A stretch of DNA of 64,000 bases, taken from NCBI GenBank assembly GCA_018015315.1, contig GCA_018015315.1_3629.1. The stretch is one strand, 5' to 3'. The notes beneath the pieces are model-generated. The model was given only the letters and a program-made list of their open reading frames with translations, was not told the DNA's origin and searched no databases. Both the position numbers and the translations under genes were made by a program. Shown piece by piece: positions 7,821-47,120 of this stretch (within the stretch, counting starts at the first letter, position 1; each line of letters starts with the position of its first letter). Source of the stretch: a phage.

Positions 7821-10800
7821 TTAACGAGAGAAAGTTGCATAAGCTTCAAGATCATACTGCTGATCACCAGGAAGCATGGCACCTATGGAGCCAAACCCCA
7901 TGACCCTGCCTTCTACTGCCAACTGCAGTCTGAACCCTACCCATCCGGAACTTCTTGCAGCCTCGATGTTATCGCTATACCCGAAAGTAGCAAGCTCGTC
8001 AACTCCAGATCCGAACAGCAACTGGATCTGATTTCTCGGAAGCCCTATAATTTCAGGAATATATGCTCCGAAGTACACCATTTGCCCTACTTTAGGACCG
8101 CTGCCATACTCCATCGGTCTGCTTGCAGAGAAAGTCTTCATTCCTGAAGTCCCTGCCGGATTTGGGTATGCCCCGTTTGTTGCTCTGCCTATCCACATTC
8201 TCCACTGTGGTGTCATCTGTTTGACAGTGAAAGATGTTGAAGACGTCTTGCGGCCTGCATCATCCGTAACTACAAACGTTATGTTGACATTACCGGGCGC
8301 TTTAAATGTTACCAGTCCTGTGTTAGCATCAACAGTTGCTATGCCAGTATTACTACTTTCCCAAGTCTTTCTGATCCCTGTTACGTTGGAAGGGGTGATA
8401 GAGGGTTCCTGCATCTGCAGTTTACCGCCAACAATACCTATGCCATTGCCAGGGTTATACAACACCCCAACCTCATCTACAATATTCCCAGCCTTGAGGC
8501 TGTATTTTCTTGAGAAGTTGTAGGTTCCGTTATAAGTATGTGTCCCTGAGAATGTGACATCGGCCTTGCCGTGGGAGATGCAAACCAAAGCATACTTCCT
8601 GTCAGGCAATGTAGCCCCGGTCTCTGGGTGAGTTTTACCCACTTGGAACACGCCAGGATCGGTAGAGTCGTGGCTATCCCTGATAGAGCTTGGACCACCC
8701 ATTAACTGAGACAAGCAATCCCTTACCCACGTCCAGTTATTATCACTGGAGAAGTCAACAGTCAAATCAAACACAACCCACTCGTTAGGCTTCCAAACAG
8801 GTGTTGTAATAGACTTGCCTACGCCACCACCCTGAAGGGTAGATGACTGCTCAGTGATCAATGCTGCATAAGCCAAAGTCCCTAAACGCAAGGTCTGGCT
8901 TGCGGTTCTCACCACCTTAGAATCGGCATCTGTGAAGTTGTTGATAACCTGGAAGGTGCCATAAGTGTTTTTACAGGTGATTCTTGCATTCAGTGTGTCA
9001 ATCTTTCTCACATCTGCCATGGCAGTGTTAGACACAGAGAAGTCAGAAGCTTTGGCTGAGTTTGCTGCAACAACCGGAACAACGTTAAGAGTTGCGTTGA
9101 ACTGGCAAGCAGGAGTAACCAGCAGCCTGTTATCACCTATTTGCTTCCATGAAACACTTTGAACAGGTAGATTCCATTTGATACCTGAGAAAACTTTAGC
9201 AACCCTTGGTCCCAGAGCTCCAGTCCTGTTGTCTTTACAACACATAGACATGGTGATCGTTGACGGAGTGGCCTGACCAAACAATTGCTGTGCTTTTGCA
9301 GAAGACATGGTGTAGAAATTGTCCTTAACAAACTCATCAGCTGCTAACGATCCGTCAGATTTCCACCACTGCACCTGATACCCTGTCTTATCCCAGCCCC
9401 CAACCTGCTTCAAGTCTTCCCAAGAGATTTCCAGATCTCCCGTGGTAGGATTGATTGCAGCAGTCCCTGGTGTGCCGGATGACCACAATGGAATATCGAA
9501 CCACGCTGGTTTAACAGATTGCACTGCGTTAGGACCTATTGCAGCAGCAAGTTGTTGGCCCATCAATACGCGAGCATCTTTTACCAGACCCCACTCAATC
9601 ATGGATCCAGAGTAACCTTCTTTCTTGTAGGCCGAGGATCCGTTTAAGTGGATAAGTCTGCTTGTGCCGAAGTTATACGCTCCACCACCGTTGTCGTCTG
9701 CAAAGTTGTACACAATTCTATCCCTGGTGTCTTTCCACGCTCTACCACCTATTTCATAGTTGTGGTCATAGCAACGTTGCAGTGTTGTCCAGCAAATGAT
9801 AGCCATCCTTCTGCCATTGCTGAAGCCGAAGGCATTATCGTTAAGCTCTCTCCACAAATAGCAGTTGGTAGTCCACATGGCTCTGTGGATGTTAAACCAG
9901 TTGACAGATCTTGCAGCATTGTTGTAGTCGGTTCCCTCTAGAGTAGGCCACACTGCATTAACCAGCATGTCTTCTGTCCCCGCATCCATCAGGAATCCTC
10001 TTACCTTTTTACCCATTCCTACTCTGTCTTTAGCAATCCAGCTGCCAAACAGTCTCAGTTTGGGGCCAATAACAGTTTCCTCCGGATGCTCAAGAGAAAC
10101 ATATTTCAAGTGTACTGTAGGATCACCATAGGTGCCATCGCAGACACTTTTGTGCATGTTTTCACCAAGGTCCAGACGAATACCTGTAAGAGTTTTTGTG
10201 TTGTCTGTGAGTTTGTCTGTCAAGTCAAACTCATACCACCACCATCCAGCACCTAACAATACCTTCTTACAACGCTGTGCATCTGTATCAGATATTCTCT
10301 TATCCCCTGCAAAAGGCGAATCTGCAAATTGGTAGTGCAGAGCAATTTCAAACGGGTGTGTTGATGTTCCGTTTTCAGCAGGAACTTGCTTACCTATCAG
10401 GTCGCACTTAATGATCATCACGACACGTCTGTATCCATTGGCTACCGGAACGTCGAACGGATACTTCTCTCCGTTCATATTTGCATGGACAGACGAGAAG
10501 ACTATATACGGGTCAACAGCATTACCCAGGGTTTCAGGACCAGGGATCATTTTGTATTTCTTGACTTGCCCCATAATATAGTCGCTGCCATAGGTTGCAG
10601 CCTCGAAGCAAGATCCCCCGTTAGGTAGTTCCCCCGGACCCCAGAAAAATGCGCCATAACAGTTATAAAACCACTTGTTAGGGTCGTATTTGTTCTTGAA
10701 GGTCTGAACCTCGTTGGCCTGTTTTGTCAAGAAAACCTGCGTATCTGTGAAGATTGCAGGGTTTACTCTCGCCTGACGCGGAGGGTAACCTGTAGTCTGG

Positions 10801-13457
10801 TTAAACCACTGATTACAAGAGATATCTCTCATATAGTCATAATCGGAATATTTGTTTGCATCTTCGTTCCAACACAGGTTCAGGTTGGTGCCGCCCATGC
10901 ACACAATATATTCTGTGACATATTTATCACTTCTGGTTGGGATTCCTATGAACCATCTGTTAACAGGCTCGTCCCAAGCTGTCCGCTCATCTTTAACGCA
11001 GATAGCGATCCAGTCATGTGTTCCTGTTTTCTTGCACACATCGCGCTTCATACCATAATAAAACTCTTTAGTATTTGGCTCAGGTGCATTTATCAGGTAA
11101 CTCCACGCCTGATTTGCATAGGTTCCATTGGTGCGAGGATCATGGTCAAAGGCATACATGATGATCCTTTCTCCACCAAGATGTTCACCGAGGGTAACTT
11201 TGATGTTTACATCACCGTAACCGTTACGAACTATATCCATATTGTCAATAGAGATGCCTCTAGGGGTGTAGGCAATTTTCAGAGAACTATCTTCACTGGT
11301 ACCACCCAGAGTAATACCTATATTGTTTGTTGTTCCATCAACATATTTTACTGTAGCTTCCCAACGTATCCCGAAATACCCTGCGTTGTGGCTAACAACT
11401 TTCAGTGTGCGAGCACCTGGGTGAGGCTTACCAGGATCAGGCCATGGATCAGCATGCTCGTGCACTGTTAACGATGTTCCGTTCTGCTCGTTAACCTGCA
11501 GCATCTTCCCGCCTTTGCCGTTAGGGTTGAACTCCCACAAGGCTTGTGTTTTCACAAGATTGTCATAGATACTGCGTCTCTGGTCGTAGATCTCCTGGGT
11601 CACATCATACGTGGTAGATCCGGCATCTTGCCTGTGAAGCCTAACCATATATGCTGTATCGCTTTCTGGAGCAGGCTGAGAGCCGTTAAGCCCAAAGTAT
11701 ACAGTATCGTTTACATGGAACTGTTTCTTCCTGCCAACAGTGTGCCATTTGCCGTCTGACGGATATGCAGGAACTATAATGTTCCAGTTTAAGTTTCGTG
11801 TGGTGTGGGTTCTTCCAGCGCCATGTTTATCATGATAGGTGATCTTGACAGAATACAGACCGCGTCTGTTGATGTTACGGTTATGCTGGGTAACCACAAT
11901 CTCGTTAGCACCGCCATGGTTCCAGTTAGTAGAGAACTGATAGTTTGCATCTGTAACAACAGTACCTGCAGCGTTCACGAGCTCAATCTTGTCAATAATG
12001 AACGTAGCACCCTCCGGTTGAGGTTTCAACTTCATTTTGACAGTGTCGCCAATGTATATATTGCTAACACTGCTTACACCATTGACATCAAAGATGTCTT
12101 CGATACTCCAGCTATCTACCGGAACATTTTTATACCAATTCTCAGGAATCTCTGTGAACCCTTGGCTGTTAAGTCTGCCGCCGAACAGGTTATTAGATCC
12201 TGAAAAACTACCACGTGGTATTCCTGACCACCAAAGCTTTCCATTTACCACACAGAATGTGCCTAAGAAACCTTCCCTGTGGATCCCTTGAAAATAAACG
12301 CTTTCTGTCCAGCTTACTGGCTCTGTCTGTTCAACAAACTTAGCTGTTGCCAGCGCTCTGTAATGAATAAAATTGGCCCTAGGATTATTATTAGCAGATT
12401 GAGCACCAATATCGTTACACAGGTTTCTGGAGAAACCACGGTACTGTTTTGTACCATTATTGAAGAAAATTCCACTAGTCCCGTACCCGCGAGCCATAAT
12501 TACTTCATGGGTATAGGTGATGTTAAGGCTTCTCCACGTGTCGTCACCCCAAACATCCTGACCATAAAACACATTAACAAGTTGTTGGTCATCAGGTTTG
12601 TGCATCCTTTCTGTGGCTATAATTGCCCCGTTAGGACCACACATAAACCCTTTCCACTCCTCATCTGCAGGAATGCCTCTCAAATCGTTACGAGTAATCT
12701 GCACAGGAGGCCAAACAAGGTCGTTTCTATTGTTATTTCTCAGAAAGTCGTATCCAGCAATCCAGAAACCTCTAGGACCACCGAAAATAACAGAGTTGTC
12801 ATGCACCTCGCAGTTGATGCTTGGGTTTTTCCAAGGTCCTGTTTCAGGATTTTCCGATGTCTCACCAATCTTTACAGGGGTTGCATGCTGATTTTTATCT
12901 ACATGCAAAGATCCGTAGGTGTTGTTACCAGATCCATATAGGTTAAGTATGCCAGTGCCTTCTGCCTCTGCAATAACCCAGACAGTGTTGTTAATACCAC
13001 CCATCACCTCAATAAGGCGCTCTGGGTGGGTGTCAAGGTGCAACCCTTTAACAATCTGTTCCGGAAGAGGTGTCCACTCGTTTACGCAAACATCATTACC
13101 GCCTGCCGCAGTGGATCCGATAAGACCTGCAGTGCAGCCGATGTAGAAAAACTGGTTATCAAAAGTCCGGATCACAAACGCACGGTCTGCTCTCCACACA
13201 TGATCAACATTCCAGGCTGTTTCGCTTGGGTAGTTTATAGGGTTACGATCCCCAGTGCGACACTCCCCGAACTTGTTATAGCCCGTAATATTAAGCTGAC
13301 CATCATCAAAAAGTATAGCTAAGCTATTTACATAGGATACTGTGTTGCTTGTACCATCACTGTTGTCTATTGGGTATGACAGAACAGCAAGTTCCTTAAT
13401 TCCACCCCTCTTATCGAGGAAATGACGACCAAGTTTTAGCAAAGGGATTGGAAGCAT
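7821..13457 (-). CDS. giant tail fiber / virion-associated protein (1878 aa)
   Basis: 5.6 kb ORF at the distal end of the tail-fiber block; bacterial Ig-like segment near the C-terminus; GGAG RBS upstream. Confidence 0.65.
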   Translation of the reverse strand: MLPIPLLKLGRHFLDKRGGIKELAVLSYPIDNSDGTSNTVSYVNSLAILFDDGQLNITGYNKFGECRTGDRNPINYPSETAWNVDHVWRADRAFVIRTFDNQFFYIGCTAGLIGSTAAGGNDVCVNEWTPLPEQIVKGLHLDTHPERLIEVMGGINNTVWVIAEAEGTGILNLYGSGNNTYGSLHVDKNQHATPVKIGETSENPETGPWKNPSINCEVHDNSVIFGGPRGFWIAGYDFLRNNNRNDLVWPPVQITRNDLRGIPADEEWKGFMCGPNGAIIATERMHKPDDQQLVNVFYGQDVWGDDTWRSLNITYTHEVIMARGYGTSGIFFNNGTKQYRGFSRNLCNDIGAQSANNNPRANFIHYRALATAKFVEQTEPVSWTESVYFQGIHREGFLGTFCVVNGKLWWSGIPRGSFSGSNNLFGGRLNSQGFTEIPENWYKNVPVDSWSIEDIFDVNGVSSVSNIYIGDTVKMKLKPQPEGATFIIDKIELVNAAGTVVTDANYQFSTNWNHGGANEIVVTQHNRNINRRGLYSVKITYHDKHGAGRTHTTRNLNWNIIVPAYPSDGKWHTVGRKKQFHVNDTVYFGLNGSQPAPESDTAYMVRLHRQDAGSTTYDVTQEIYDQRRSIYDNLVKTQALWEFNPNGKGGKMLQVNEQNGTSLTVHEHADPWPDPGKPHPGARTLKVVSHNAGYFGIRWEATVKYVDGTTNNIGITLGGTSEDSSLKIAYTPRGISIDNMDIVRNGYGDVNIKVTLGEHLGGERIIMYAFDHDPRTNGTYANQAWSYLINAPEPNTKEFYYGMKRDVCKKTGTHDWIAICVKDERTAWDEPVNRWFIGIPTRSDKYVTEYIVCMGGTNLNLCWNEDANKYSDYDYMRDISCNQWFNQTTGYPPRQARVNPAIFTDTQVFLTKQANEVQTFKNKYDPNKWFYNCYGAFFWGPGELPNGGSCFEAATYGSDYIMGQVKKYKMIPGPETLGNAVDPYIVFSSVHANMNGEKYPFDVPVANGYRRVVMIIKCDLIGKQVPAENGTSTHPFEIALHYQFADSPFAGDKRISDTDAQRCKKVLLGAGWWWYEFDLTDKLTDNTKTLTGIRLDLGENMHKSVCDGTYGDPTVHLKYVSLEHPEETVIGPKLRLFGSWIAKDRVGMGKKVRGFLMDAGTEDMLVNAVWPTLEGTDYNNAARSVNWFNIHRAMWTTNCYLWRELNDNAFGFSNGRRMAIICWTTLQRCYDHNYEIGGRAWKDTRDRIVYNFADDNGGGAYNFGTSRLIHLNGSSAYKKEGYSGSMIEWGLVKDARVLMGQQLAAAIGPNAVQSVKPAWFDIPLWSSGTPGTAAINPTTGDLEISWEDLKQVGGWDKTGYQVQWWKSDGSLAADEFVKDNFYTMSSAKAQQLFGQATPSTITMSMCCKDNRTGALGPRVAKVFSGIKWNLPVQSVSWKQIGDNRLLVTPACQFNATLNVVPVVAANSAKASDFSVSNTAMADVRKIDTLNARITCKNTYGTFQVINNFTDADSKVVRTASQTLRLGTLAYAALITEQSSTLQGGGVGKSITTPVWKPNEWVVFDLTVDFSSDNNWTWVRDCLSQLMGGPSSIRDSHDSTDPGVFQVGKTHPETGATLPDRKYALVCISHGKADVTFSGTHTYNGTYNFSRKYSLKAGNIVDEVGVLYNPGNGIGIVGGKLQMQEPSITPSNVTGIRKTWESSNTGIATVDANTGLVTFKAPGNVNITFVVTDDAGRKTSSTSFTVKQMTPQWRMWIGRATNGAYPNPAGTSGMKTFSASRPMEYGSGPKVGQMVYFGAYIPEIIGLPRNQIQLLFGSGVDELATFGYSDNIEAARSSGWVGFRLQLAVEGRVMGFGSIGAMLPGDQQYDLEAYATFSR

Positions 13458-13469
13458 TGTGTTCTCCAG

Positions 13470-13497
13470 ATAAGAAAACCGCCCCGTCAGGAGCGGT
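13470..13497 (-). terminator. rho-independent terminator after the 581-aa fiber gene
   Basis: 7-bp stem with one G-U pair, UGAC loop, then UUUUCUUAU on the minus-strand transcript. Confidence 0.5.
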
Positions 13498-13505
13498 TAG
13501 ATATA

Positions 13506-15251
13506 TTAACGTTGTGCAATTACTACGTCTACAATATCACCAACACCACAATACGTTAATTGCAGCAAGGTAACACTGTTAGCCTTGTTGTTAATAACAG
13601 GTGTTGCCGACAGGATAGCATACTTATCGTGCAAAGTCACGTTGTGACCTACAGCATCCTGAATGACATAGATAACTGCAGTGAATGGATAAGGTTTATC
13701 TTCCGCTGATGTCCCAGGCCACTGACCTATTGTAAAATCCCCTTTAGCGTGGACAACATACATACTGGCCTGCCCGTTAGGTGTCCATGTCCCACTGGAC
13801 GCGTCAACCTCCTCTAAATCAAAATCTACCTTTCCTGCGTGGAAAGTAGGGGCAGTAATGGTTTTACCCGCCTCAATTTCTTGAGAGGTGGTTATCTTAC
13901 CGCTGGAGTTAATGCCATTACAAACAAAGTTGACATTAGAGAAGTCTGGCAGCCACCCAGTCACTGTGCCGGATATTTCAAGGTTGTGAAGGTAGGTGGT
14001 TCCCGTACCTGCTGCGTTTAAACTAACATCTCCATTTACCTGCAAGTTTCGGGTAACGTTGCAGTTTTCAGAGTTTGCAGTTGTTGCAGTTAAAGTGGTG
14101 GTTGTCAGCTCGGTAATTGTACCTTTATTAGCTGTAAGCCCTTCTCCTTCAAAAGTTGCACGCTCATTAACTCTTAAGGTATTCAGAGCTATGTTTTGGA
14201 TAGAGGCCGTACCTCGAATAACTACAGACCCGCCAACCTCCAAATCGCCATTTATCAATGCATCACCAGTGCTTTCAATATAGCTAGGGTAGATCATGGT
14301 GCCATCGACAGAGTATGTTATCCCTGTAACGGTACCTGTCACCTCAAGGTTCTTAACCCTGGTGGTCCCATCGACCTGCAATGTCGGTTCGGTTGCTGCC
14401 TTCATGGCATTACCACGAATGTACACGTAGTCAAAAAAGTTATTACCCAGACCATCAAAATGCACATCGTTATTATTAGCCACTGGTTTCCCAGAAGTTA
14501 TAGTGTCAGCTATAACCCTGTGGGTGGACACTTCATGAGGTTGCAGCTCTGTACTTCTCCAGTCTGCATGCTTAGGATCGCTCCACGCAAAAGTAAGTGT
14601 AGAAGTATTTGCCGTGAGGATTAGATTCCTAAAGCGTGCAGTAGAATCTGCCCCATTAACAGGTCCATGTAAGGTAAGGGTGCCACCAACTATGGTGTTA
14701 GCAAGTTCTGTAAGACCTTTTACCACCAAAGACCCTACAGTAACCTTCATCCCCTCCATAGCTTCAAATATGCTATCTACATAGTCAACAACAAACTCTG
14801 TGTTTGCTATAGACTCAGACTTATCGTCCATTGGAGGCGTAGGTACTCGCGGGTCACCTTCGAACCTTGGGCTGTTAAGTTTTGCGTAGTATTTTGCCAT
14901 TACTGCAGAGTCGGTATATAATCTCCAGTTTGGAGATTGTGAAGGATCTGCTGGCATTCTAACCGGGTTAGATTTTGATGCTGCGGGAGCGTACCACCAC
15001 TGAGGGCCTGTGTCCCCTTTAAACTCATATAGCTGGTTAAAAACTGTTGTGGATGCACCATACGCCCAAGGGATCGGCGGCGTTTTAAAATAAAGGGTGT
15101 CAAGCATGGCTTTTCGTACCGTAGGGATGGTGGTCCCATCCTCTACGACAACTTCATCCACAGCGTTACCGTTGACAATCAGGTGCAAACGTTCAGAATC
15201 AACAATTACTTGATCTACCGCCTGCTCAAAGCTTGTCATGTCTTGCGCCAT
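13506..15251 (-). CDS. tail fiber protein
   Basis: 581 aa; Thr/Gly/Asn-rich repetitive beta-strand-like sequence typical of fibers; sits in the fiber gene block. Confidence 0.6.
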   Translation of the reverse strand: MAQDMTSFEQAVDQVIVDSERLHLIVNGNAVDEVVVEDGTTIPTVRKAMLDTLYFKTPPIPWAYGASTTVFNQLYEFKGDTGPQWWYAPAASKSNPVRMPADPSQSPNWRLYTDSAVMAKYYAKLNSPRFEGDPRVPTPPMDDKSESIANTEFVVDYVDSIFEAMEGMKVTVGSLVVKGLTELANTIVGGTLTLHGPVNGADSTARFRNLILTANTSTLTFAWSDPKHADWRSTELQPHEVSTHRVIADTITSGKPVANNNDVHFDGLGNNFFDYVYIRGNAMKAATEPTLQVDGTTRVKNLEVTGTVTGITYSVDGTMIYPSYIESTGDALINGDLEVGGSVVIRGTASIQNIALNTLRVNERATFEGEGLTANKGTITELTTTTLTATTANSENCNVTRNLQVNGDVSLNAAGTGTTYLHNLEISGTVTGWLPDFSNVNFVCNGINSSGKITTSQEIEAGKTITAPTFHAGKVDFDLEEVDASSGTWTPNGQASMYVVHAKGDFTIGQWPGTSAEDKPYPFTAVIYVIQDAVGHNVTLHDKYAILSATPVINNKANSVTLLQLTYCGVGDIVDVVIAQR

Positions 15252-15260
15252 GATTTCTCC

Positions 15261-15527
15261 TTAAGCTTTTTGCTCTTCGTTTTTAACGTGGTCAGGGTGC
15301 TGGCAACCCCACCGGAGCGAGATGAATTTGCTAATAAGCTGGGGGCAGGCTACTGAAGGTGCATATATCCACGCATACCATTCAGGAAGCGTATCATTAT
15401 ACCCCATATGAATAAACACCCCAGTCATCACCGCCATGCCTATGTTCGACCATAGCTTAGATTGGGATACTTTCGTAGGGTCATCAGATGCCGCAACCAG
15501 TCCCCATAAAAACTGAGTTAGTTTCAT
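15261..15527 (-). CDS. small membrane protein (candidate holin-like or fiber-associated)
   Basis: 88 aa; hydrophobic segments (LWSNIGMAVMTGVFIHMGY, WYAWIYAPSVA) and charged C-terminal tail (HVKNEEQKA). Confidence 0.4.
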   Translation of the reverse strand: MKLTQFLWGLVAASDDPTKVSQSKLWSNIGMAVMTGVFIHMGYNDTLPEWYAWIYAPSVACPQLISKFISLRWGCQHPDHVKNEEQKA

Positions 15528-15538
15528 TTACCCTCTTT

Positions 15539-16585
15539 TTAAGCATAAGATATAGTGATCCATTGACCATTTACAAGTTTTTGGATAGCACCTGTCCAGT
15601 AGTCACCTTGATAAGGGTGTTTATAAGCGTAGTTACCAGAGCACATCACATGTCCAGGGTAGACTCTTGACTCTCTGTAGGTGGTTTTGAAACGGTTTGC
15701 TATCCTTACATCATCAACCCCTCTGCTAGGCATAGGAATAGTAAGGTTACCACTACTGTCTGCGCCGTTACCATTTACCCTGCGGACCACGTTTCTTCCA
15801 CCAACTGTTGCATATTGGCCCCTGACGGTTTCATCGTTACAATCAACTCTTCCACCTATTTGAGCGCTTCCGCAGGATTGTTGTCCATTAACAGTGGCTC
15901 TTGGTATAGTAACTGCATTGGCATTTGCAGAGGAACTTTTTGCATCGTTGCATTCAAGATTTCCTTGGATAGCCAGTCTTGCACGGTTGGCAGTTATAGC
16001 ATTGAGCTTCATAGCCGAAAACACAGGATGCCCACCAGAAGGTTGAAATCTCCAACGGAACCCGTCTATTTGGTGAGAAGGATCATCAAGGTCTGTGCCG
16101 TCAGCACCGCCGATGTTGTCCATAATCCAGAAGTCCATAGTCGTCTTGTCTGGAGTTATGGTGGTATATATTGCCGCATTGTCTGTTGACGCAGATGCAA
16201 ACTCGATTCTTTGAAGACCTAAAGTTTGAGTCTGAGTCATTATGTCTCCAGACTTGTCAACATACAGATCGTCCATTTCTTCAGGCGAGTATACATTGAG
16301 AACTTGACGTGCAGCAGCTTTGTCTGGAACGTCTGCTAGATTATTAGTGACCCTTAAGAATCTATTGTCCCATCCTGGGACAACATCCTCTGTTAAATGC
16401 TTTAACCACGCAGAAAGCATGTGAAGTTCAAAGTTAACAACTTCACATGCCACTCTTTGTGTCATATCCCAACCTTTCAATCTCTCTTCTTTTTTTGGTT
16501 GAGATTTATTCAACTCTCCCGTATTTTCAAGCACAACATCCTGATTGGCCCAAATATCAAGAGGGATAACTGGTTTAGTCATCAC
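15539..16585 (-). CDS. tail fiber protein, paralog A
   Basis: 348 aa; N-terminal region and C-terminus (QKLVNGQWITISYA) paralogous to 17597..18637; KSGDxMTQ motif like the GDTMTG motif common in phage fibers. Confidence 0.65.
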   Translation of the reverse strand: MMTKPVIPLDIWANQDVVLENTGELNKSQPKKEERLKGWDMTQRVACEVVNFELHMLSAWLKHLTEDVVPGWDNRFLRVTNNLADVPDKAAARQVLNVYSPEEMDDLYVDKSGDIMTQTQTLGLQRIEFASASTDNAAIYTTITPDKTTMDFWIMDNIGGADGTDLDDPSHQIDGFRWRFQPSGGHPVFSAMKLNAITANRARLAIQGNLECNDAKSSSANANAVTIPRATVNGQQSCGSAQIGGRVDCNDETVRGQYATVGGRNVVRRVNGNGADSSGNLTIPMPSRGVDDVRIANRFKTTYRESRVYPGHVMCSGNYAYKHPYQGDYWTGAIQKLVNGQWITISYA

Positions 16586-16671
16586 GTTCTCCTGAGAAAA
16601 TTCCTTAGGACTATTTTAACACTTTAGGGAACAAAATGCAAGAACGGAGTCCTTTCCGTCCTGACCTTTGT

Positions 16672-16986
16672 TTACCTTTTACTATGCTCTACAAGCATGT
16701 GCAAAATCTTTTGTACATCAGCTCTGATGCCGGAGACATCTGTCCTAACATCCTGCTTAAGGTCGTTAATATCGGCCTCTAGCTTGCTTAACCGAGTCTC
16801 GATAATAGAATCAAGTTTATCTTTTGTAACCATACTGTTTTTCACTAAGATGAGGTCTTTCTCCAGTTCATCCAACCTCTTGGAAATGCCTTTCCATTTG
16901 GTGTGCCACTGGTTGAAAGCCCATACACAGATCGGGACAACGGTACCCATGCAGATACCGTACAATGCCGCCAAATCCAACTCCAC
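16672..16986 (-). CDS. membrane-anchored coiled-coil protein
   Basis: 104 aa; one N-terminal hydrophobic helix (LAALYGICMGTVVPICVWAF) followed by heptad-like charged sequence. Confidence 0.4.
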   Translation of the reverse strand: MELDLAALYGICMGTVVPICVWAFNQWHTKWKGISKRLDELEKDLILVKNSMVTKDKLDSIIETRLSKLEADINDLKQDVRTDVSGIRADVQKILHMLVEHSKR

Positions 16987-16997
16987 AACACCTCCTC

Positions 16998-17582
16998 TTA
17001 GAGGGTAGGTCGCTCCGGGAAGAAAATGTCAGGGGCTTTAGATGTATCTATTTCAAGAAGTTTTACCCTGTACATTTTCAAATCTCTGATGTTACGTTTC
17101 TGGTCATCAGTAAGATCATATTCAAGGTCAATCATGTCTTGATAGGCACCAATTCTAGCAGTAGCCCAAGCAAGTTCTGTCTCTATGACACCCTCTGCCT
17201 GTTGAACAAAGAATTCATTGTCTGTGACAAATTCATCACCAACTAAACGCAAAGCGTCGTGGTGAAGCATAATGTTTTCTGGTACCTCTTCTTTTTTGGC
17301 GATAACCACACGAAGACCTGGAGCAGGCCATAGGGCATCAGGTTCTTCTGTAGATGTCTTAAGAATTCCCTTCTCGTCAACAAGTAGGAAGATACAACCA
17401 GGATTTTCTTGTCGTAATGTTCGTGACTGCACATACCAATCGCCATCATCATTACGTAAAAAATACCCAGTGTATGCGGTGTAATCCTCAACCTCTTGAG
17501 GGGTCAGCTCCTTGGTTCCCTTGTTGGGGAGGTATTCGCCAGATCCCGGTTGGTAAAGTTTAAACTCTTGAAGTATTTTCAT
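16998..17582 (-). CDS. tail fiber assembly protein (Tfa-like chaperone)
   Basis: 194 aa; C-terminus (LKMYRVKLLEIDTSKAPDIFFPERP) matches the conserved C-terminal signature of tail-fiber-assembly proteins; directly downstream of a fiber gene. Confidence 0.7.
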   Translation of the reverse strand: MKILQEFKLYQPGSGEYLPNKGTKELTPQEVEDYTAYTGYFLRNDDGDWYVQSRTLRQENPGCIFLLVDEKGILKTSTEEPDALWPAPGLRVVIAKKEEVPENIMLHHDALRLVGDEFVTDNEFFVQQAEGVIETELAWATARIGAYQDMIDLEYDLTDDQKRNIRDLKMYRVKLLEIDTSKAPDIFFPERPTL

Positions 17583-17596
17583 GCTAGTCCTCCGAT

Positions 17597-18637
17597 CTAT
17601 GCATAATTAACAGTGATCCATTGACCATTTACAAGTTTTTGTAAAGGTCCTGCCCAGTAGGTTGAACCACGCATCTCTTTTTTGTCACCGAAATGCCAAC
17701 CTGTGACAACGTAGCCGTTGCGAATTGGAGATTCGGAAACGCCGTCAACAAGTCTTGCACCGATTCTGATGTCTTGCACACCTGTCTGCGGGATAGTGAT
17801 CGTTACATCACCGTTGCCGTTAGCTGTCACTCCATTCACGGAGCGCACCACATTTCTGTTACCGACAACACAGTGCTGGCTTCTTACAACCATACTGTCA
17901 CAACTTGCACCACCATTAATATATACTGACCCAGCCGTCAACTGACTAGCCACATTACAGTTGGTGAATGTTGCTGTATTGCTGATAGTAAGGTTATTGC
18001 ACCTCATGTTATCGACAACTTCAACATTGCCTACCACTTTCAACAGCGCACGGTTAGCCGTGATCGCGTTAAGGTACATCAAAGTGAACTCTGGATTAAT
18101 ATCCGGCTGAGTTGGCTGGAATCTCCAACGAAACGCATCTACTGTAGATGTACCACCATCATCAAACGACCCAATATTATCACTTAACCCGAAGTCGAGA
18201 GTTGTCTTATCTGGGCCAATAGTTGTCTCTATCCAAGCCTTATCTGTCTCGGCAGCTTTAAAGTTGATACGTTGCAAACCCAATGGGCCTGTCATTGTAT
18301 CACCTGTAACTTTTACATACCTGGCGTCTGCCTCTTCCTTAGTAATAATCCCAAGGTTTCTACGGGCAACAGGAATGTTCAAAAGATCACTCAAGTTATT
18401 ATCACGTACCAGATAACGGCCTTCTTGAGCGGGGATCTGCTCGTCAGCAATGTATTTTGCCCAAGTTCCGAGCATATTGAAAATATAGTTAAGTTCTTCA
18501 CATGAGGGCTTTTGACCAAGATCCCAACCTTTTCTCCACAAATCATCAATCGGGCGTAGCCTGTTCTGTCTGTGGGTGTTAGGCAGAACCTGATCCTCCT
18601 CTGCCCAAATCTCTAATGGAAAACTAGGTTTTGACAT
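17597..18637 (-). CDS. tail fiber protein, paralog B
   Basis: 346 aa; VTGDTMTGPL motif; C-terminus QKLVNGQWITVNYA nearly identical to paralog A. Confidence 0.7.
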   Translation of the reverse strand: MSKPSFPLEIWAEEDQVLPNTHRQNRLRPIDDLWRKGWDLGQKPSCEELNYIFNMLGTWAKYIADEQIPAQEGRYLVRDNNLSDLLNIPVARRNLGIITKEEADARYVKVTGDTMTGPLGLQRINFKAAETDKAWIETTIGPDKTTLDFGLSDNIGSFDDGGTSTVDAFRWRFQPTQPDINPEFTLMYLNAITANRALLKVVGNVEVVDNMRCNNLTISNTATFTNCNVASQLTAGSVYINGGASCDSMVVRSQHCVVGNRNVVRSVNGVTANGNGDVTITIPQTGVQDIRIGARLVDGVSESPIRNGYVVTGWHFGDKKEMRGSTYWAGPLQKLVNGQWITVNYA

Positions 18638-18649
18638 TTTATCTCCTGA

Positions 18650-20722
18650 TTATGAGAAGTCTGGCGGGACAACATCCTCTACATACCCTTTCAGAGCAAC
18701 CTGCCCCATATGAAGCACGGTAGAATCTCTAGCGGTAACAGTGATGCTGTCAGACATTACTTGCGGATATGCCCACACATACTGTTTTACCTCAGGGTAT
18801 CTATACTCTATAGTTGCCATGTTTCCGCAAATACATCTCCATAAAAATTCTTGGTAATTCCTGGTTGGGTCGTAGCCATATACCGGAGCAAGCTCTTTAC
18901 TAGGAACGAACCCTGCAAGGTATTGTATTTCAGACGGTTGCCAACCTAACTTAACGATAGGTATGTTTACAGACTCTTTTGCCTTTTCAATACCTCCCTG
19001 CATCACCCAATCGTAGCACTCAGTGCAGAAGAAATCAAGAGCACCTGCTTCCTTTTTATATTGGTCAGCAAGGTTCAGCTTTTGCGTAAGCTCGGTTTCC
19101 ATAATGGTTGGGAAAAACAGCAAAGCTGTCATCTGAGCTGATGCAGCGTGTGCTTTTATTGCCTTTGAAATAGCAGCAATACGAGCGCCAAGCTTACCAC
19201 GACAAAATGCTACATACTTGTCGTAAACACCGCCAGTTTTAGGATCGTCAATAGTCCCAATATCTAAGGCATACTCTCCTGTCTCATCATAAAACGCCTG
19301 TTTTGTAGGGTAATCATAAATACAAGGTCTACGAGTATCGGTATTGTACCACCACCACGGTTCACCAACCTGCATAATCACTGGCAGGTTGTTTCTCATA
19401 GCGACTGATGCAAAATTCTTAAATACTGCAGTAAGGAAATTCATACCCTCTTCAATGGTTGGAGACAGGAGGTAGCTACAAGGTGTATATCCTGTTTTAG
19501 CGTAGTTATCATTCCAGTCTCTTTGGGTCCATTCCAACGGGCAGGCATCGCTGTAAAGCTCAAAACTTACAGACTGCATAACGTCGAAGTTATGTCGTTT
19601 GGCATTGTACATAAAATCATCATGCCATTTATAAGCTGCAGCGTTTAGCGCCCCTGTTCTGTTTATAGACCATTGGGTTCCTGACCATGTGTAGTCATAA
19701 TAATGACTCATACCAACATAATGGTTTATGGTTCCGGTATAGCCCAGACGCTTGATATTGTTCAACACCCTTAAAGGAGATACGTTCCACATATCGTCAT
19801 ATGCGGTGCAGATCCCAACGTCGTGCTCTTTAACCTGAATATTGTTAAGTTGCATCATTTTCCAGCCCGTGTCTGGCTGAAGCAGATCTAGGCGCAACTC
19901 ACACTCTACATTTTCCGTTCTCGGGTCTGTGCTATTACTTACCCAGTCTTTAGGCATGAGCGGTATTAAAATTCTTCTCACCTGTCGAGGATCAACACCC
20001 ATCATGTTGTTGTTCTGATCCATCCCGACGCAGTCCTCGAAATCAATATGAATCTCTGCAACATTCTTATCCTCTGAGATGCTGACAGCATATTGAGCTA
20101 AAGGAACATAGATGATTGTACCATCAACAAGGTCTACAGTCATAATCATCTTTTCAGGAGTGGAGAAGTTGCTGGCATTGGTTATTGACATTCTGAACCA
20201 AAGCTTGGTGTTTCTCATCTCATAGTGATCATCAAACCCAATACCGAAATGGTCATACTTGTCAACTGTTTCCCAAATGCACCCAGCCATACCTCCATAT
20301 GTTCTTGACACTAAACGGTTAATACAACAGTTGTCATCTGCAACAATACAGGTACTTTCAGTCTGCTGAGTGGTTGTAACCCAATATCTTGGGTGAAACA
20401 TTCTCTCCTCGACAGTATCCCAAGATATTCTGTCAAGATTCTCATCTGAAACTATTGTACATTTCGCCCTTTGTGTCCCAATCATCACCCCTTGAGATTT
20501 TGATGAAAACTCCATAAAGAAGCTTCTTGGTAACCTGTTGGGTAATTTGTCAACAATTTCCACTGGGATTTCAATACTGGTTGCCCCAACTGGGATAGTT
20601 ATATCGCCCTCAACATGATCATAATCCCTACCAGGAACGGCAGTATCCTGAACTGTGCGGTAATGAAACCGTGCAGCCATTGTAGAGTAATCACGGTAAG
20701 GTTTAAAAACAGCTGTTGCCAT
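18650..20722 (-). CDS. tail-associated protein with Calx-beta-like N-terminal segment
   Basis: 690 aa; N-terminal DYDHVEGDITIPVGATSIEIPVEIVDK resembles a Calx-beta repeat; Trp/Tyr-rich remainder suggests a carbohydrate-active fold. Confidence 0.5.
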   Translation of the reverse strand: MATAVFKPYRDYSTMAARFHYRTVQDTAVPGRDYDHVEGDITIPVGATSIEIPVEIVDKLPNRLPRSFFMEFSSKSQGVMIGTQRAKCTIVSDENLDRISWDTVEERMFHPRYWVTTTQQTESTCIVADDNCCINRLVSRTYGGMAGCIWETVDKYDHFGIGFDDHYEMRNTKLWFRMSITNASNFSTPEKMIMTVDLVDGTIIYVPLAQYAVSISEDKNVAEIHIDFEDCVGMDQNNNMMGVDPRQVRRILIPLMPKDWVSNSTDPRTENVECELRLDLLQPDTGWKMMQLNNIQVKEHDVGICTAYDDMWNVSPLRVLNNIKRLGYTGTINHYVGMSHYYDYTWSGTQWSINRTGALNAAAYKWHDDFMYNAKRHNFDVMQSVSFELYSDACPLEWTQRDWNDNYAKTGYTPCSYLLSPTIEEGMNFLTAVFKNFASVAMRNNLPVIMQVGEPWWWYNTDTRRPCIYDYPTKQAFYDETGEYALDIGTIDDPKTGGVYDKYVAFCRGKLGARIAAISKAIKAHAASAQMTALLFFPTIMETELTQKLNLADQYKKEAGALDFFCTECYDWVMQGGIEKAKESVNIPIVKLGWQPSEIQYLAGFVPSKELAPVYGYDPTRNYQEFLWRCICGNMATIEYRYPEVKQYVWAYPQVMSDSITVTARDSTVLHMGQVALKGYVEDVVPPDFS

Positions 20723-21408
20723 TAACCCTCCTGTCTAGTTGCGTTTACTGTAATACTTTCACAATAAATGGTTGTGGTGTCCCAATCAGGTCTTACGTCA
20801 GGAACATACAGCAAAGTAGCCAGCCCACCAACTCCGAATTGGTTTTCTTCCCACACTGATCCGAAGCCAAGAGCTGCAGAGTCACCTTCAAAACCAAAAG
20901 CTTGCCCTTGCGATTCTGTAAGACGCAAATGACAAGGCAGTGGTAGCATGTCTAAGATCTGATCAATAGACTGCAATATGTCAAAGCAAGTTTTTCTAAT
21001 ATTTATGTCAAACCTGAAGTTGTCTCCTTTCCACGTATCGAAATTGTTTCTTCCGAACAATTGTCGCAAGGTGGAGATGACATCTTCGCGAGTCCCGCCC
21101 CTTGATGCTGCGGCCTGCTGAATAATTAGTGTGGCACGAAAATCAGCATCTGAAAGTCCATTCCTAAGAATACCGAGTTGATTACCAACTTCGTCAAGGT
21201 ATCTTCCGCTGGCATTATTAAGCAATCTTCCTTCAGCCAAACCTACCAGCATCTTATCAACATCCTCCAACCTTTTAAGGTACACGGTTAAGAATGTGAC
21301 TAAATTAACCTTCTCAGCCAGAAAATCTCCAGGCAGGTAGTCAAGACCTCCCTGAACAAAATCTGGCAGAGTGTGGATGTGGTTAACATCCGACTTAATC
21401 TCTGCCAT
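20722..21408 (-). CDS. hypothetical tail/baseplate protein
   Basis: 228-aa ORF, start/stop coupled to the downstream gene. Confidence 0.5.
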   Translation of the reverse strand: MAEIKSDVNHIHTLPDFVQGGLDYLPGDFLAEKVNLVTFLTVYLKRLEDVDKMLVGLAEGRLLNNASGRYLDEVGNQLGILRNGLSDADFRATLIIQQAAASRGGTREDVISTLRQLFGRNNFDTWKGDNFRFDINIRKTCFDILQSIDQILDMLPLPCHLRLTESQGQAFGFEGDSAALGFGSVWEENQFGVGGLATLLYVPDVRPDWDTTTIYCESITVNATRQEG

Positions 21409-21419
21409 ATCTCGCCGCC

Positions 21420-22910
21420 TTAAATAGTTTGTTGGAAAGTTATATTACTTTCATCGAGGTCAAACACCTCGGTCATGTTTGCAACAATATCGTTTGCAGT
21501 GTAAGCTTCATCAGAAGCCCCCACAGGTTTAACTTGAATTACCAGTCTATTAAATCTACCTATCGACACAGCAGCAGATGCAGCACCAACCAATTGGATA
21601 TTGTACAACGTATCTGCAACATCCAGTCCGTTAACAACCTGCAAAAGAGCCTCTACAATGGCATCTTTTTCGGTTGTGGAAAGCGCAGCACCGGAGTAGG
21701 TAATTCTTACATCCAGGCGGTAGGTATTTGCCTTGGAATAATAAATTCTTTCAGTTTGACCGTCAGATGTAGTTACATCGTAGAAAATATTACCATAAGT
21801 TCTGTTCGTACAGGCTATAGTTTGGTAAAGTGCTTGGCAAATGTCCTCCGTTGCACCACCAAACACAACCACTTGGAACTTGTAAGGAGGTATACCTTTA
21901 GCATCAGTTTTATCGGTGTTGTTGGAGAACACTCTCACTTTCTCAACACCTTTCACCTCGCTTACCGCGCTAAGGATTGCAGGACGGGTAGCCTTCGATG
22001 TTAACTGTTTAGTGCTGGAAGCTCTTAAGCGATACTCGGAATCTTTCTCAACATCCCTGCCCTCGTTGAATCTTTCGCGGTTGGTAAGCTTGATAAATCC
22101 ACTGGGAGTAGGTGACATTGTTGTCACGGTTTCTGCCTCTCTTGACAGCTCACCAGCCTCGTTAGCGATAACATCCAAGGTGATGGTTCTTTCCCCTACA
22201 ATCGGGGATACTCTGAAATCTACCCTACTATTAAGTCCAACTTGATCAAGATTCGAATTGTACCCTATCCACAACGTTCCTGTCAACATATCGATCTGAA
22301 TCAAATCGTCGTTCAACAGGGTTGTATTATCGACAATGAATTGCTTAATCTCTCCGTAAAAGCTTGGCAGATCAGAAGAGTCCAGAGCCTTATCTGTTAA
22401 AACCAAACTTTTTGTTTTGATACTTCCATCTGTCTGGTTGGTAATTTGAAAGTTGTATTTACCAATCCTTAGGTCTGGAGCATTTATTCTGTGGGCAATA
22501 AGATTCCCTGCCACTTGCACATCATTACTAAGAACAAAGTTGCCACTATCCAGCGTATAAGTTTTGGAATCATAAATCATATTGTACGGCACAGTTGTGT
22601 TGATCGTCAACTGGCAGGTACCTGATGATTTAGAACGGCCTCTTCGGTAAATACCTTGTCTTCCAAGAAGTTCGTCTAGGTAAATACCTTCTGCCCCATA
22701 CAGCGTCTGTGATGCGTATACAGATGCTGCCATAAGAATAAGTTGATACTCTCGCTCGTTGAAGATAGTGGTCAGCTTATCTGCAACGGAGTTACTCTGT
22801 ACGTTGAAGTTTTCGCCAAAAGCACGGATCAGGCTTTGCTTAGTTTCAACGATTAGGTCATTTAGGGTTGGTATAACGAAACCAGCCTCTGTCAATCCAT
22901 ACTTAGCCAC
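21420..22910 (-). CDS. putative baseplate or tail fiber structural protein
   Basis: 496 aa; GTG start with GGAGGAG RBS just downstream of a strong promoter; first gene of a fiber sub-operon. Confidence 0.5.
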   Translation of the reverse strand: MAKYGLTEAGFVIPTLNDLIVETKQSLIRAFGENFNVQSNSVADKLTTIFNEREYQLILMAASVYASQTLYGAEGIYLDELLGRQGIYRRGRSKSSGTCQLTINTTVPYNMIYDSKTYTLDSGNFVLSNDVQVAGNLIAHRINAPDLRIGKYNFQITNQTDGSIKTKSLVLTDKALDSSDLPSFYGEIKQFIVDNTTLLNDDLIQIDMLTGTLWIGYNSNLDQVGLNSRVDFRVSPIVGERTITLDVIANEAGELSREAETVTTMSPTPSGFIKLTNRERFNEGRDVEKDSEYRLRASSTKQLTSKATRPAILSAVSEVKGVEKVRVFSNNTDKTDAKGIPPYKFQVVVFGGATEDICQALYQTIACTNRTYGNIFYDVTTSDGQTERIYYSKANTYRLDVRITYSGAALSTTEKDAIVEALLQVVNGLDVADTLYNIQLVGAASAAVSIGRFNRLVIQVKPVGASDEAYTANDIVANMTEVFDLDESNITFQQTI

Positions 22911-22943
22911 GTCACTCCTCCGGTATGAAAATCTCTACAAGGT

Positions 22944-22972
22944 ATTTTACCAAATTTTGTAACAATAGTCAA
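22944..22972 (-). promoter_or_regulatory. sigma70-like promoter
   Basis: Minus strand: TTGACT (22967-22972), 17-bp spacer, TAAAAT (22944-22949); followed by GGAGGAG RBS. Confidence 0.55.
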
Positions 22973-27846: not shown

Positions 27847-28423
27847 AGAAGTTGATAACTATATTATCACCTTTTTGCATAGCATCGACTTTTTGCTTAA
27901 TTTTATAAATATCTCTGATATGAAACCTACCCTTTGGGGATTGAGTTATTATCTTCATAGTATCCCCTGCGGCAATAGGTTTCCTAAGTCTTGGAGATAT
28001 GCTTATAACAGCAGCCCCAACACCATCGCTGCGTACTGGAGCTGTTACTACTTTCAACTCATCGTTCACAGATATTTTATCACCAGCTCTGGCTATGTCT
28101 CTGTTTGGCTCCCACCCGACCGTCTTCAAAAAATCGTCGTTACCAGTAGGCCCAAGAGCGATTGGCTCATTAGCTGTTACCGAGTGACCGTAAGTTTTAA
28201 TGAGAAATATGTTCCCATCTTTATATACCTGATCAACAAAGCTCTTAAGCTCTAACAACTGTGACTCGCTGATATTGGAAACCGTCAAAGTGCCTTTCCA
28301 GTTAGGTGTGGCATAGGTTACTTTTTGCGTTTTACCTGTAAACGGACTTTTAAACGTAACAATATCTGCTAGCAGCTCCAATCTAATATCTGGAAGGTAT
28401 CTAGGCCTTTCCCATAAAAACAT
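27833..28423 (-). CDS. hypothetical tail protein
   Basis: 196-aa ORF; GGAGG RBS; preceded by a promoter-like element. Confidence 0.5.
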   Translation of the reverse strand: MFLWERPRYLPDIRLELLADIVTFKSPFTGKTQKVTYATPNWKGTLTVSNISESQLLELKSFVDQVYKDGNIFLIKTYGHSVTANEPIALGPTGNDDFLKTVGWEPNRDIARAGDKISVNDELKVVTAPVRSDGVGAAVISISPRLRKPIAAGDTMKIITQSPKGRFHIRDIYKIKQKVDAMQKGDNIVINFFEDF

Positions 28424-28454
28424 TGTGCCTCCAGGTTAAACAATCATGATAGTT

Positions 28455-28483
28455 ATTTTACCAGATTTTAAGTTAATACGCAA
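28455..28483 (-). promoter_or_regulatory. candidate extended -10 promoter
   Basis: Minus strand: TGG-TAAAAT (-10 at 28455-28460) with weak -35 TTGCGT 17 bp upstream. Confidence 0.35.
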
Positions 28484-43522: not shown

Positions 43523-43635
43523 TTTATAGCATCCTTATTAGTCATGTTGTGCACCATATTTGTGTATTTTACCATGATTAGGGTGCATTGTCAATTTAAC
43601 CTTTCAAGCAATTCAAGAACGTGTGTCAAAACCAT

Positions 43636-47079: not shown

Positions 47080-47120
47080 TAATGTATTTTACCACAAAGA
47101 TACATCAAAAGCAACAATTT

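Follow-up and report, generated by a model that had tools for sequence, protein, structure and literature searches.

Among broad-host-range coliphages, the rV5-like phages are some of those isolated most often. They serve in O157 typing and as components of therapy cocktails. To predict or engineer their host range, it is important to know which of their many fibres binds the terminal receptor.

Much about their short tail fibres has already been described. The 42–44% paralogy of the two fibres, the single chaperone, the homology to S and U of phage Mu and the idea of two LPS chemotypes were published in 2013 and 2021 (PMC3606486, PMC8594841). Kropinski et al., who in 2013 proposed "two chemotypes of LPS" for the rV5 fibres, also reported an HHpred similarity of the rV5 fibre to T4 gp12 and found gp30, gp32 and gp33 (both fibres and the Tfa protein) in the rV5 virion proteome (PMC3606486). 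In the BASEL annotation of Vequintavirus phages, "short tail fiber protein" appears twice, together with "tail fiber chaperone" (PMC8594841). Maffei et al. favoured in 2021 a shared secondary receptor and read the absence of allelic variation as compatible with it (PMC8594841).

On K-12, every one of the tested Vequintavirinae depends on waaC and waaG (PMC8594841, PMC7229145). This dependence is a property of the whole phage, not of an individual fibre.

Here we describe a stretch of 64 kb (the window) which comes from an rV5-like Escherichia coli phage, a myophage of the genus Vequintavirus. The DNA of the studied locus is about 98% identical to many published Vequintavirus genomes. The rV5 genes gp30, gp32 and gp33 are found in the same order and with the same sizes (347, 194 and 346 aa), and the rV5 DNA is 98% identical to the window. 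We observed no difference of substance between the window and rV5 or the BASEL phages; it is another isolate of the genus. Its two genes of about 347 residues, STF-A and STF-B, are the short tail fibre paralog pair published earlier for rV5-type phages, which makes the observation real but ordinary.

We are nearly certain of the identity of the locus and of its evolutionary layout, as presented below. For the complete explanation, which blends this layout with a mechanism of two specificities and one chaperone, we have reasonable but lesser confidence.

Gene layout and transcription signals

All features given here lie on the minus strand. For comparisons we used GenBank phage records and Logan/ENA contigs; a scan of IMG/VR with the Tfa protein gave 4 loci only.

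The preliminary description of the window spoke of two fibre genes of about 347 aa, and both are indeed present. STF-B (17597–18637), the ortholog of rV5 gp33, encodes 346 aa, and STF-A (15539–16582), which corresponds to rV5 gp30, encodes 347 aa. The open reading frame of STF-A extends to 16585, which would give 348 aa from a GTG codon; the ATG at 16582 is the start annotated in relatives.

Directly upstream of STF-B lies the gene of a 690-aa fibre or baseplate protein (18650–20722; PF23845, E 5e-80, as well as PF23844 and PF03160), with Calx-beta and N4-gp65-like NCTSP TIM-barrel domains. STF-B is followed by the genes of a 194-aa Tfa-type tail fibre assembly chaperone (16998–17582; rV5 gp32) and of a 104-aa protein (16672–16986; rV5 gp31; PHROG 5345, E 8e-49). 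Downstream of STF-A we find the genes of an 88-aa hydrophobic protein (15261–15527; rV5 gp29; PHROG 1322, E 3e-32) and of the 581-aa lateral tail fibre (13506–15251; rV5 gp28; PHROG 4549, E 6e-251), whose orthologs in related contigs bear PF26208/PF26209. The lateral tail fibre is the last gene of the STF-A unit, and a terminator-like hairpin then follows at 13477–13498.

A terminator scan also revealed a terminator-like stem-loop (16641–16662) that closes the unit composed of STF-B, Tfa and the 104-aa gene. RNA folding of this hairpin gave z = −2.1, and divergent lineages retain the stem, in which both partners have changed at 4 of the 7 pairs. At 16612–16621, 30 nt upstream of the STF-A start codon, lies TGTTAAAATA, a copy of the late-promoter-like motif (TggTAaAAtA) described for rV5 (PMC3606486). 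The motif is conserved in the window, in the divergent L010 and L008 lineages and in FV3-like genomes. The pattern TGNTAAAATA occurs 7 times in the window, always on the minus strand, compared with an expectation of 0.81. A sigma-70 scan passed over this site, because its −35 hexamer matches at only 3 of 6 positions; we recognised it because it is conserved and fits the published motif. Judged by these signals, STF-A appears to have its own transcription unit, separated by a hairpin and provided with a late-promoter-like motif.

Paralogy of the two short tail fibres

STF-A and STF-B align over their full length with 44% identity (BLASTP, E 1e-95). Both cover positions 1–342 of the 342 positions of PHROG 4465, "tail fiber protein" (E 8e-166 for STF-A and 1e-171 for STF-B). 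They are true paralogs.

The identity between them, followed in 30-residue sliding windows, peaks in the middle of the proteins (residues 100–200, 53–67%) and in the collar (residues 250–280, 53%). Troughs are seen at residues 40–80, at 200–240 and in the tip at 290–320 (27–30%). The proteins had been said to differ in the middle, which turns out to be their best conserved part. The N-termini, described as shared, are 50% identical over the first 30 residues, and the first 60 residues are where STF-A strays most from the family consensus.

An almost identical C-terminal tail was seen correctly, with 13 of the last 15 residues the same in both proteins and the near-identity confined to this stretch. 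Both tails contain the QKxVNGxW strand, and this terminal motif is common to Mu gpS (5YVQ), the phiTE short fibre (9CUY) and all 30 aligned homologs. The tail is a motif of the whole Mu-S/phi92-gp147 fibre family. Since the motif is family-wide, the tail makes no special link between STF-A and STF-B at the protein level.

At the DNA level, a 30-nt tract of STF-A encoding QKLVNGQWIT (15554–15583) is matched exactly by positions 17612–17641 in STF-B. Of 11 codons that could vary synonymously, 10 are identical, against a background of 0.34 (Poisson-binomial P = 4.5e-4, calculated from codon usage). The L010 clade shows the same paralog-to-paralog identity in the tract, but with 3 different synonymous codons. 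In FV3-like genomes the signal at the 3′ ends is weaker (7 of 10 codons), and STF-A reads QKFVNG. This pattern of codons suggests that the 30-nt match is probably a short gene-conversion tract and that the 3′ ends of the two genes evolve in concert.

In a sequence search of the PDB, residues 1–108 of STF-B matched the phiTE short tail fibre (9cuy_c, E 1.5e-19), and the N-terminus of STF-A matched the joint domain of the same fibre (9CUY, E 1.2e-9). Residues 3–92 of 9CUY served as our reference for the baseplate-joint domain. At the other end, residues 286–343 of STF-B align to residues 440–501 of Mu gpS (5yvq_A). The same chain was the sole significant Foldseek match for the AlphaFold2 models of both fibres (E 5e-7 and 1e-6), which are monomer models of low confidence (pLDDT 63 and 58). 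Because of these low values the models support no reliable structural statement on the tips, and they were used for the fold search alone, not for mapping the differences between STF-A and STF-B. No chain of T4 gp12 was present among the PDB sequence matches (E up to 1) or the Foldseek matches of either fibre.

STF-B and its chaperone

By position, STF-B corresponds to the lone short fibre of sister genera and to phi92 gp147, and is their ortholog. Of 28 N-terminal positions that are conserved in the family, as judged from outgroups, it keeps 27. The STF-B tip is 55–70% identical to those of Av-05, NINP13076 and phi92-like phages, and 58.6% identical to that of 52-kb myophages.

The observation that a Tfa-type chaperone follows only this paralog was confirmed. 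Residues 122–192 of the protein encoded directly after STF-B match PF02413 (Caudo_TAP) with 45.2 bits, the gathering score being 22.1, and the protein belongs to PHROG 136 (E 9e-36). Its comparison with PDB sequences gave chance matches only. STF-A has no Tfa in cis, as the gene next downstream is that of the 88-aa hydrophobic protein, and a tblastn search with the Tfa of the window found no second copy in the 64 kb.

Between the window and its relatives, Tfa identity amounts to 21–40% in the N-domain and 17–53% in the C-domain. A modular model of Tfa proteins, with a variable N-terminal fibre-binding domain and a conserved C-terminal domain, has been published (PMC9608196). In an uncultured sister clade, differing tip types are paired with wholly different Tfa proteins (18.6% identity). 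Because tip types travel there with different Tfas, it is not self-evident that one Tfa should serve two tips that are 44% identical.

The 104-aa protein, whose gene adjoins that of Tfa in all related genera, begins, according to hydropathy, with a hydrophobic helix, and the rest of it resembles a coiled coil. Its orthologs in Av-05, NINP13076, GAP31 and Mydo are also 104 aa long and 34–35% identical.

STF-A, the derived copy

STF-A is the extra, faster-evolving copy. The order of genes in sister genera is STF, Tfa, m104, m157, m88 and LTF, whereas that of the window is STF-B, Tfa, m104, STF-A, m88 and LTF. STF-A fills the slot which in sister genera belongs to the gene of a 133–157-aa membrane protein, and neither a remnant nor a relocated version of the 157-aa gene was found in the window. 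Neighbour-joining groups the A and B clades as sisters and gives the A branch about 3 times the length of the B branch. Support for this grouping is only moderate (67.5% bootstrap), and gene conversion affecting the middle domain could have raised it artificially.

The genes downstream of the two fibres do differ, as the preliminary description had it, but the 88-aa protein is an ancestral neighbour and not a partner specific to STF-A. We considered it as an A-specific chaperone, given that one GenBank record names it "tail fibre assembly protein". Its orthologs in single-fibre genera are 50–58% identical, and an 81-aa protein of the phi92-like phage PaulScherrer, sited elsewhere in the genome, is 37% identical (E 3e-19). 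An A-specific role was rejected because the protein is kept in genera with a single fibre and is sited elsewhere in phi92-like phages.

The changes in STF-A are concentrated in the baseplate-joint domain. Only 16 of the 28 family-conserved N-terminal positions are kept, and 12 are lost within the first 60 residues, several of them through non-conservative replacements (P19E, I30K, L33E, W34R, G41T, P44V). The divergent L008 lineage already has the A-type N-terminus, and the same region makes the wedge contact in phiTE and phi92 (PMC11972413, PMC13450770). All this would fit a fibre that no longer occupies the phi92 "fibre III" position and docks elsewhere, for instance on another fibre or on the wedge at a second site, serving as a branch or adaptor. 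However, STF-A retains residues 1–20 (MxKPxxPLxIWA) and many invariant positions, it still matches the phiTE joint domain (E 1e-9), and no candidate for an alternative docking partner was identified. We consider such a relocation quite improbable.

The tips of STF-A and STF-B (the last ~55 residues) are 44% identical. The STF-A tip is of a type confined to Vequintavirus, with at most 43–45% identity elsewhere. No other part of the protein is so well conserved: a comparison of the window with the divergent L010 clade gives 95% identity for the tip and 78% for the whole protein, and the other domains across those lineages are 56–82% identical. Ratios of nonsynonymous to synonymous changes are 0.08–0.14 in both tips. 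These values argue for strong purifying selection on the STF-A tip. Both copies are functional.

The tips of the two paralogs in the L008 lineage belong to one type (89% identity). Recent gene conversion was tried as an explanation of these near-identical tips and rejected; codon identity there is at background level (0.26–0.48), which points to old shared ancestry under selection.

Receptor specificity

The reading that we prefer can be put as a working model. STF-B, together with its Tfa chaperone, would be transcribed at the end of the late unit of the baseplate wedge. STF-A is an old extra copy that arose before the Vequintavirus lineage diversified and displaced a small membrane-protein gene. 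Both would form trimeric fibres in which the N-terminal ~90 residues dock on the baseplate wedge and are followed by a shaft and a collar, the last ~55 residues being the receptor-binding tip. STF-B, with its ancestral joint and a widespread type of tip, most likely binds the LPS outer core. STF-A combines a remodelled joint and a distinct, strongly conserved tip. This difference between the copies, ancestral joint and tip in STF-B against remodelled joint and distinct conserved tip in STF-A, makes it most likely that the virion gains two different terminal-receptor specificities.

It is most likely that the single Tfa (gp32) folds the tips of both fibres and remains part of the virion. Its likely common handle is the terminal strand YWxGxxQKLVNGQWIT that the fibres share, identical in places through short gene conversion. 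We rate the combination of two specificities with one chaperone at about an even chance of being right. Two receptor specificities as such, suggested for the window and proposed already in 2013, fit the 44% identity of the tips and the conserved, genus-specific tip of STF-A; they are plausible but unproven.

Alternatively, the copies might be redundant: both fibres would target one LPS core sugar, and having two genes would raise only fibre number or robustness. The waaC/waaG dependence on K-12 is the same in two-fibre Vequintavirinae and in one-fibre phi92-like phages (PMC8594841), neither paralog has allelic variation (PMC8594841; ~116 records in our comparison), and the L008 paralogs share their tip type, as redundancy would have it. 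In Vequintavirus proper, however, the tips have diverged to 44% identity, the STF-A tip is genus-specific and kept at 95% while the other domains are at 56–82%, and the docking domain of STF-A is altered as well. Directional divergence followed by strong constraint is not what pure redundancy would predict, and we regard it as unlikely.

The preferred model of two specificities has a more specific form, in which STF-A is neofunctionalised: it would take another baseplate position and bind a second receptor, while the gene-converted strand would let one virion-retained Tfa fold both fibres. This is a tentative possibility that we would rather doubt than accept. If true, the phage would have gained a receptor specificity economically, with no additional chaperone.

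The pair had also been suggested to be a swappable receptor-binding cassette. Switching in the style of the Mu G segment (S/U versus S′/U′), or frequent horizontal exchange of tips, would suit the Mu-S-like fibres and the Mu-U/Tfa-like chaperone. Exchange of tip and Tfa is real in the uncultured sister clade, and the identical 30-nt tract of both genes could support recombination. Yet both genes run in one direction, the stretch 15200–18700 is free of inverted repeats, and the window has a single Tfa, so the features of invertible segments of the Mu G or P1 C type are missing. An invertible cassette was rejected on the grounds of strand and repeats; among the neighbouring annotated genes there is no invertase either. 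Each fibre gene is expressed from the late strand, and across ~116 Vequintavirus records STF-B is at least 98% and STF-A 94–100% identical. Within Vequintavirus we see no sign of swapping or inversion. The idea is largely refuted, and we assign it a very small probability.

Comparison with known systems

Among better-described fibres, phi92 gp147 (fibre III) is like STF-B, with a tip that is 57% identical. It is a downward-pointing short fibre on the wedge protein, and its gene is followed by that of a Tfa (gp148) and of a protein of ~110 aa. The phi92-like phages differ from the window in having a single copy and only 13–24% identity outside the N-terminus and the tip.

Mu gpS (5YVQ) is homologous to the window fibres in the C-terminal tip and the terminal QKxxNGxW strand, and the window chaperone carries the same conserved Tfa C-terminal domain as Mu gpU (TfaMu). 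Mu alternates between S/U and S′/U′ through inversion of the G segment. In contrast, the fibre genes of the window are direct and both expressed, with one chaperone, and their N-terminal two thirds are unrelated to Mu in sequence.

The N-terminal ~100 residues of the fibre of phiTE (Certrevirus, Vequintavirinae; 9CUY), a globular wedge joint, are homologous to both STF-A and STF-B. The rest of the phiTE fibre is different: it is 554 aa long, with a coiled coil and Ig-like distal domains, and flagella binding has been proposed for it. The likeness to T4 gp12 is a functional analogy, in that both are baseplate fibres for irreversible binding to the LPS core. The chaperone of T4 gp12 is gp57A, not a Tfa, and gp12 is folded under the baseplate, whereas fibres of the phi92/phiTE type point downward.

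The duplication itself is already known and is textbook matter for the genus. What our analysis adds is the positional orthology of STF-B; the slot, hairpin and late-promoter-like motif of STF-A; the losses in the STF-A joint; its genus-specific constrained tip; and the concerted evolution of the 3′ ends. Taken by domains, an ancestral copy stands next to a derived one with an altered docking domain, a private conserved tip and a putative late promoter of its own. This picture leaves existing knowledge of rV5-like phages unchanged and sharpens the experimental question.

Gene order and transcription units of the short tail fiber locus

The 8.5 kb around the locus are 97.5–98.4% identical to more than 100 GenBank Vequintavirus records, which include rV5 derivatives, LL12, Murica and BASEL phages. 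About 16–21 unannotated "Campylobacter phage" records (MG065635–MG065690, host C. jejuni) also match window positions 13000–21500, with 97.6–98.4% identity to what is an E. coli Vequintavirus locus. The records are probably mislabelled, or an E. coli phage was carried over into that data set.

Every gene of the fiber region is carried by the minus strand. In transcription order, a 496-aa wedge protein and a 228-aa baseplate protein are followed by a 690-aa fiber protein with N4-gp65-like NCTSP domains (18650–20722), the short tail fiber STF-B (346 aa, 17597–18637, rV5 gp33), its Tfa chaperone (194 aa, 16998–17582, gp32) and a 104-aa protein (16672–16986, gp31). After an 86-nt gap (16586–16671) come the second short fiber, STF-A (347 aa, 15539–16582, gp30), an 88-aa hydrophobic protein (15261–15527), a 581-aa lateral fiber and a 1878-aa Ig-domain fiber (7821–13457).

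The 690-aa protein, directly 5′ of STF-B, has a Calx-beta domain and two domains known from N4 gp65, the non-contractile tail sheath protein: its N-terminal domain and its TIM barrel. This combination matches the component lately proposed as the receptor-binding protein for NGR/ECA-type polysaccharide in Vequintavirus. Orthologs of the Ig-domain fiber lie at L010:11124–16753, L011:11124–16754 and L012:11124–16753 in a divergent clade of Logan contigs. The gene is intact in one of them (1876 aa) and its calls are split in the two others (475+183+1209 aa and 1499+391 aa); these could be frameshifts, assembly errors or true variation of the large fiber.

The sole sizeable gap of the fiber cluster is the one 5′ of STF-A. 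It holds a stem-loop (16641–16662), in which both partners of 4 of the 7 base pairs have changed in divergent lineages with pairing retained, followed by TGTTAAAATA (16612–16621), which matches the rV5 late-gene motif TggTAaAAtA. The rV5 late-promoter-like pattern TGNTAAAATA has seven copies in the window against 0.81 expected, all on the late-gene strand (the others at 22943–22952, 28073–28082, 28454–28463, 43565–43574, 47085–47094 and 51602–51611), and one copy lies just 5′ of the wedge gene. Together, these signals point to two transcription units: the wedge unit would end with STF-B, Tfa and the 104-aa gene, and STF-A would open the next.

Relationship of the two fibers

The preliminary description proposed two paralogous fibers with conserved ends and a divergent middle, only one of them followed by a Tfa. 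The paralogy is real: STF-A and STF-B are 44% identical over their full length (E 1e-95), and each aligns with the whole of PHROG 4465. A PF02413 protein indeed lies 3′ of STF-B, and no second Tfa was found within the 64-kb window. The alignment does not show the proposed pattern, however: identity is highest at residues 100–200 (53–67%) and in the collar (53%) and lowest (27–30%) at residues 40–80, 200–240 and 290–320. The last 15 residues are near-identical, as had been noted, but their motif QKxVNGxW is family-wide, common to Mu gpS, the phiTE short fiber and every aligned homolog. Thus, the sighting is correct for a known feature of a well-studied genus, with the location of the differences misdescribed.

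The N-terminus of STF-B matches the phiTE fiber (9cuy_c, E 1.5e-19) and its tip Mu gpS (5yvq_A); STF-A matches 9cuy_c more weakly (E 1.2e-9). AlphaFold2 monomer models were poor (pLDDT 63 and 58), and the sole significant Foldseek match of either low-confidence model was 5yvq_A, the Mu fiber–chaperone complex (E 5e-7 and 1e-6). A link of either fiber to T4 gp12 was not recovered at the sensitivity of the sequence and Foldseek searches used.

STF-A as an old extra copy

The one-fiber sister genera Avunavirus (Av-05), Seunavirus (NINP13076, GAP31) and Mydovirus (Mydo) share the order STF, Tfa, 104-aa protein, 133–157-aa membrane protein, ~88-aa protein and ~585-aa fiber; the phi92-like phage PaulScherrer has STF, Tfa, a 113-aa protein and a fiber. 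STF-A occupies the exact slot of the 157-aa gene, no homolog of which is left in the 64-kb window. STF-B is closer to the single-copy fibers (41–48% identity) than STF-A (38–39%), whose best match is STF-B. In a neighbor-joining tree, the A and B clades are sisters (bootstrap 67.5), with an A branch about three times longer. Synteny, similarity and tree therefore identify STF-B as the positional ortholog and STF-A as an old, faster-evolving extra copy. The two-fiber layout recurs in the Logan clade L010–L012, whose B and A share 87% and 78% identity with those of the window, and in the metagenomic contig L008, which is more divergent yet (73% for B′, 46% for A′); the duplication is thus older than those splits.

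L008 is ENA ERZ15185469 NODE_327, with its fiber genes at L008:2190–3254 and L008:116–1156. The polytopic 133–157-aa membrane protein gene lies at L003:6949–7422, L004:6997–7470, L005:6961–7434 and L006:6919–7320 in the sister genera. Three small hydrophobic proteins sit inside the tail-fiber cluster.

The description of the paralogs as having different downstream partners is misleading. The 88-aa protein after STF-A is conserved beside the ~585-aa fiber in all single-fiber genera and has a homolog upstream of the wedge genes in phi92-like phages (L007:2623–2868, 37% identity, E 3e-19). It is an ancestral neighbor, not a partner gained for STF-A. The phi92-like homolog is not beside a short fiber. 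In L008 the ortholog has 117 aa, its C-terminus being extended by a charged stretch. For the label in GenBank OR062943, "tail fibre assembly protein similar to phi92 gp144", we found no supporting evidence.

Divergence of joint domain and tip

Eight diverse outgroup fibers define 28 conserved positions within the first 60 residues. STF-B keeps 27 of these and STF-A 16, its replacements including P19E, I30K, L33E, W34R, G41T and P44V; L008 already has this A-type N-terminus. The tip of STF-B (the last ~55 residues) is of a widespread type, 55–70% identical to Av-05, NINP13076 and phi92-like tips and 58.6% to those of unrelated 52-kb myophages. The STF-A tip of Vequintavirus proper is private, its identity to any other sequence never exceeding 45%. 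Yet it is 95% conserved when the window is compared with the L010 clade, against 56–82% identity in other domains, and nonsynonymous/synonymous ratios are 0.08–0.14 for both tips. In L008, both paralogs carry a B-type tip (89% mutually identical, synonymous sites saturated, ~40–50% identity elsewhere), and therefore the private tip is a later development of the Vequintavirus lineage. Directional change, then strong constraint, is the pattern seen. As for the two receptor specificities initially proposed, a second, conserved receptor would fit this pattern better than redundancy, although this is not proof.

A possible shared chaperone for two tips

A 30-nt exact match links the fiber genes (15554–15583 in STF-A, 17612–17641 in STF-B). 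Where aligned codons specify one and the same amino acid, they are identical in 10/11 cases at the gene end and in a fraction of 0.34 in the remainder (P = 4.5e-4 from the codon usage of the locus). The L010 paralogs likewise share 10/11, with three different synonymous codons in both (CTG, GTC, CAG), which argues for short gene conversion rather than a fixed nucleotide element; in FV3-like genomes, the pattern is less clean. In TfaMu-type chaperones, a variable N-domain binds the fiber tip and a conserved C-domain drives trimerization (PMC9608196). One Tfa may thus serve both fibers by way of the terminal strand that they share, a reasonable candidate for a common handle.

In an uncultured single-fiber sister clade (~132-kb phage contigs), we observed true cassette exchange (L023:6001–7694 versus L024:6001–7639). 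Flanking genes are 97–99% identical, yet the fiber tip, beyond VQDIRL, is exchanged jointly with the entire Tfa (18.6% identity, 196 vs. 181 aa); conserved VQDIR and QKLVNGxW motifs border the variable tip. From this exchange it is clear that tip and chaperone normally vary together, and one chaperone for two tips is for this reason the weakest point of the model.

The suggestion of a swappable cassette fails for Vequintavirus itself. The fiber locus has neither inverted repeats nor an alternative orientation, and variation across ~116 genomes is minimal (B at least 98% identical, A 94–100%), which rules out a Mu-G-like switch or frequent allele exchange in this genus.

Comparison with known systems

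Kropinski et al. found gp30, gp32 and gp33 in the rV5 virion proteome (PMC3606486). Maffei et al. (2021) described Vequintavirinae sensu stricto as having two paralogous short tail fibers and one chaperone, a set homologous to the single phi92-like locus and ultimately to Mu GpS/GpU, with considerable allelic variation absent (PMC8594841). In the phiTE structure, residues 3–92 of the homologous short fiber are resolved as a globular joint seated on the wedge (PMC11972413), and 2026 cryo-EM identifies phi92 gp147 as fiber III, which is attached beneath the wedge protein and is Mu/Milano-like (PMC13450770). The duplicated short fibers of this locus are therefore already known, and both the observation and its main interpretation have been published.
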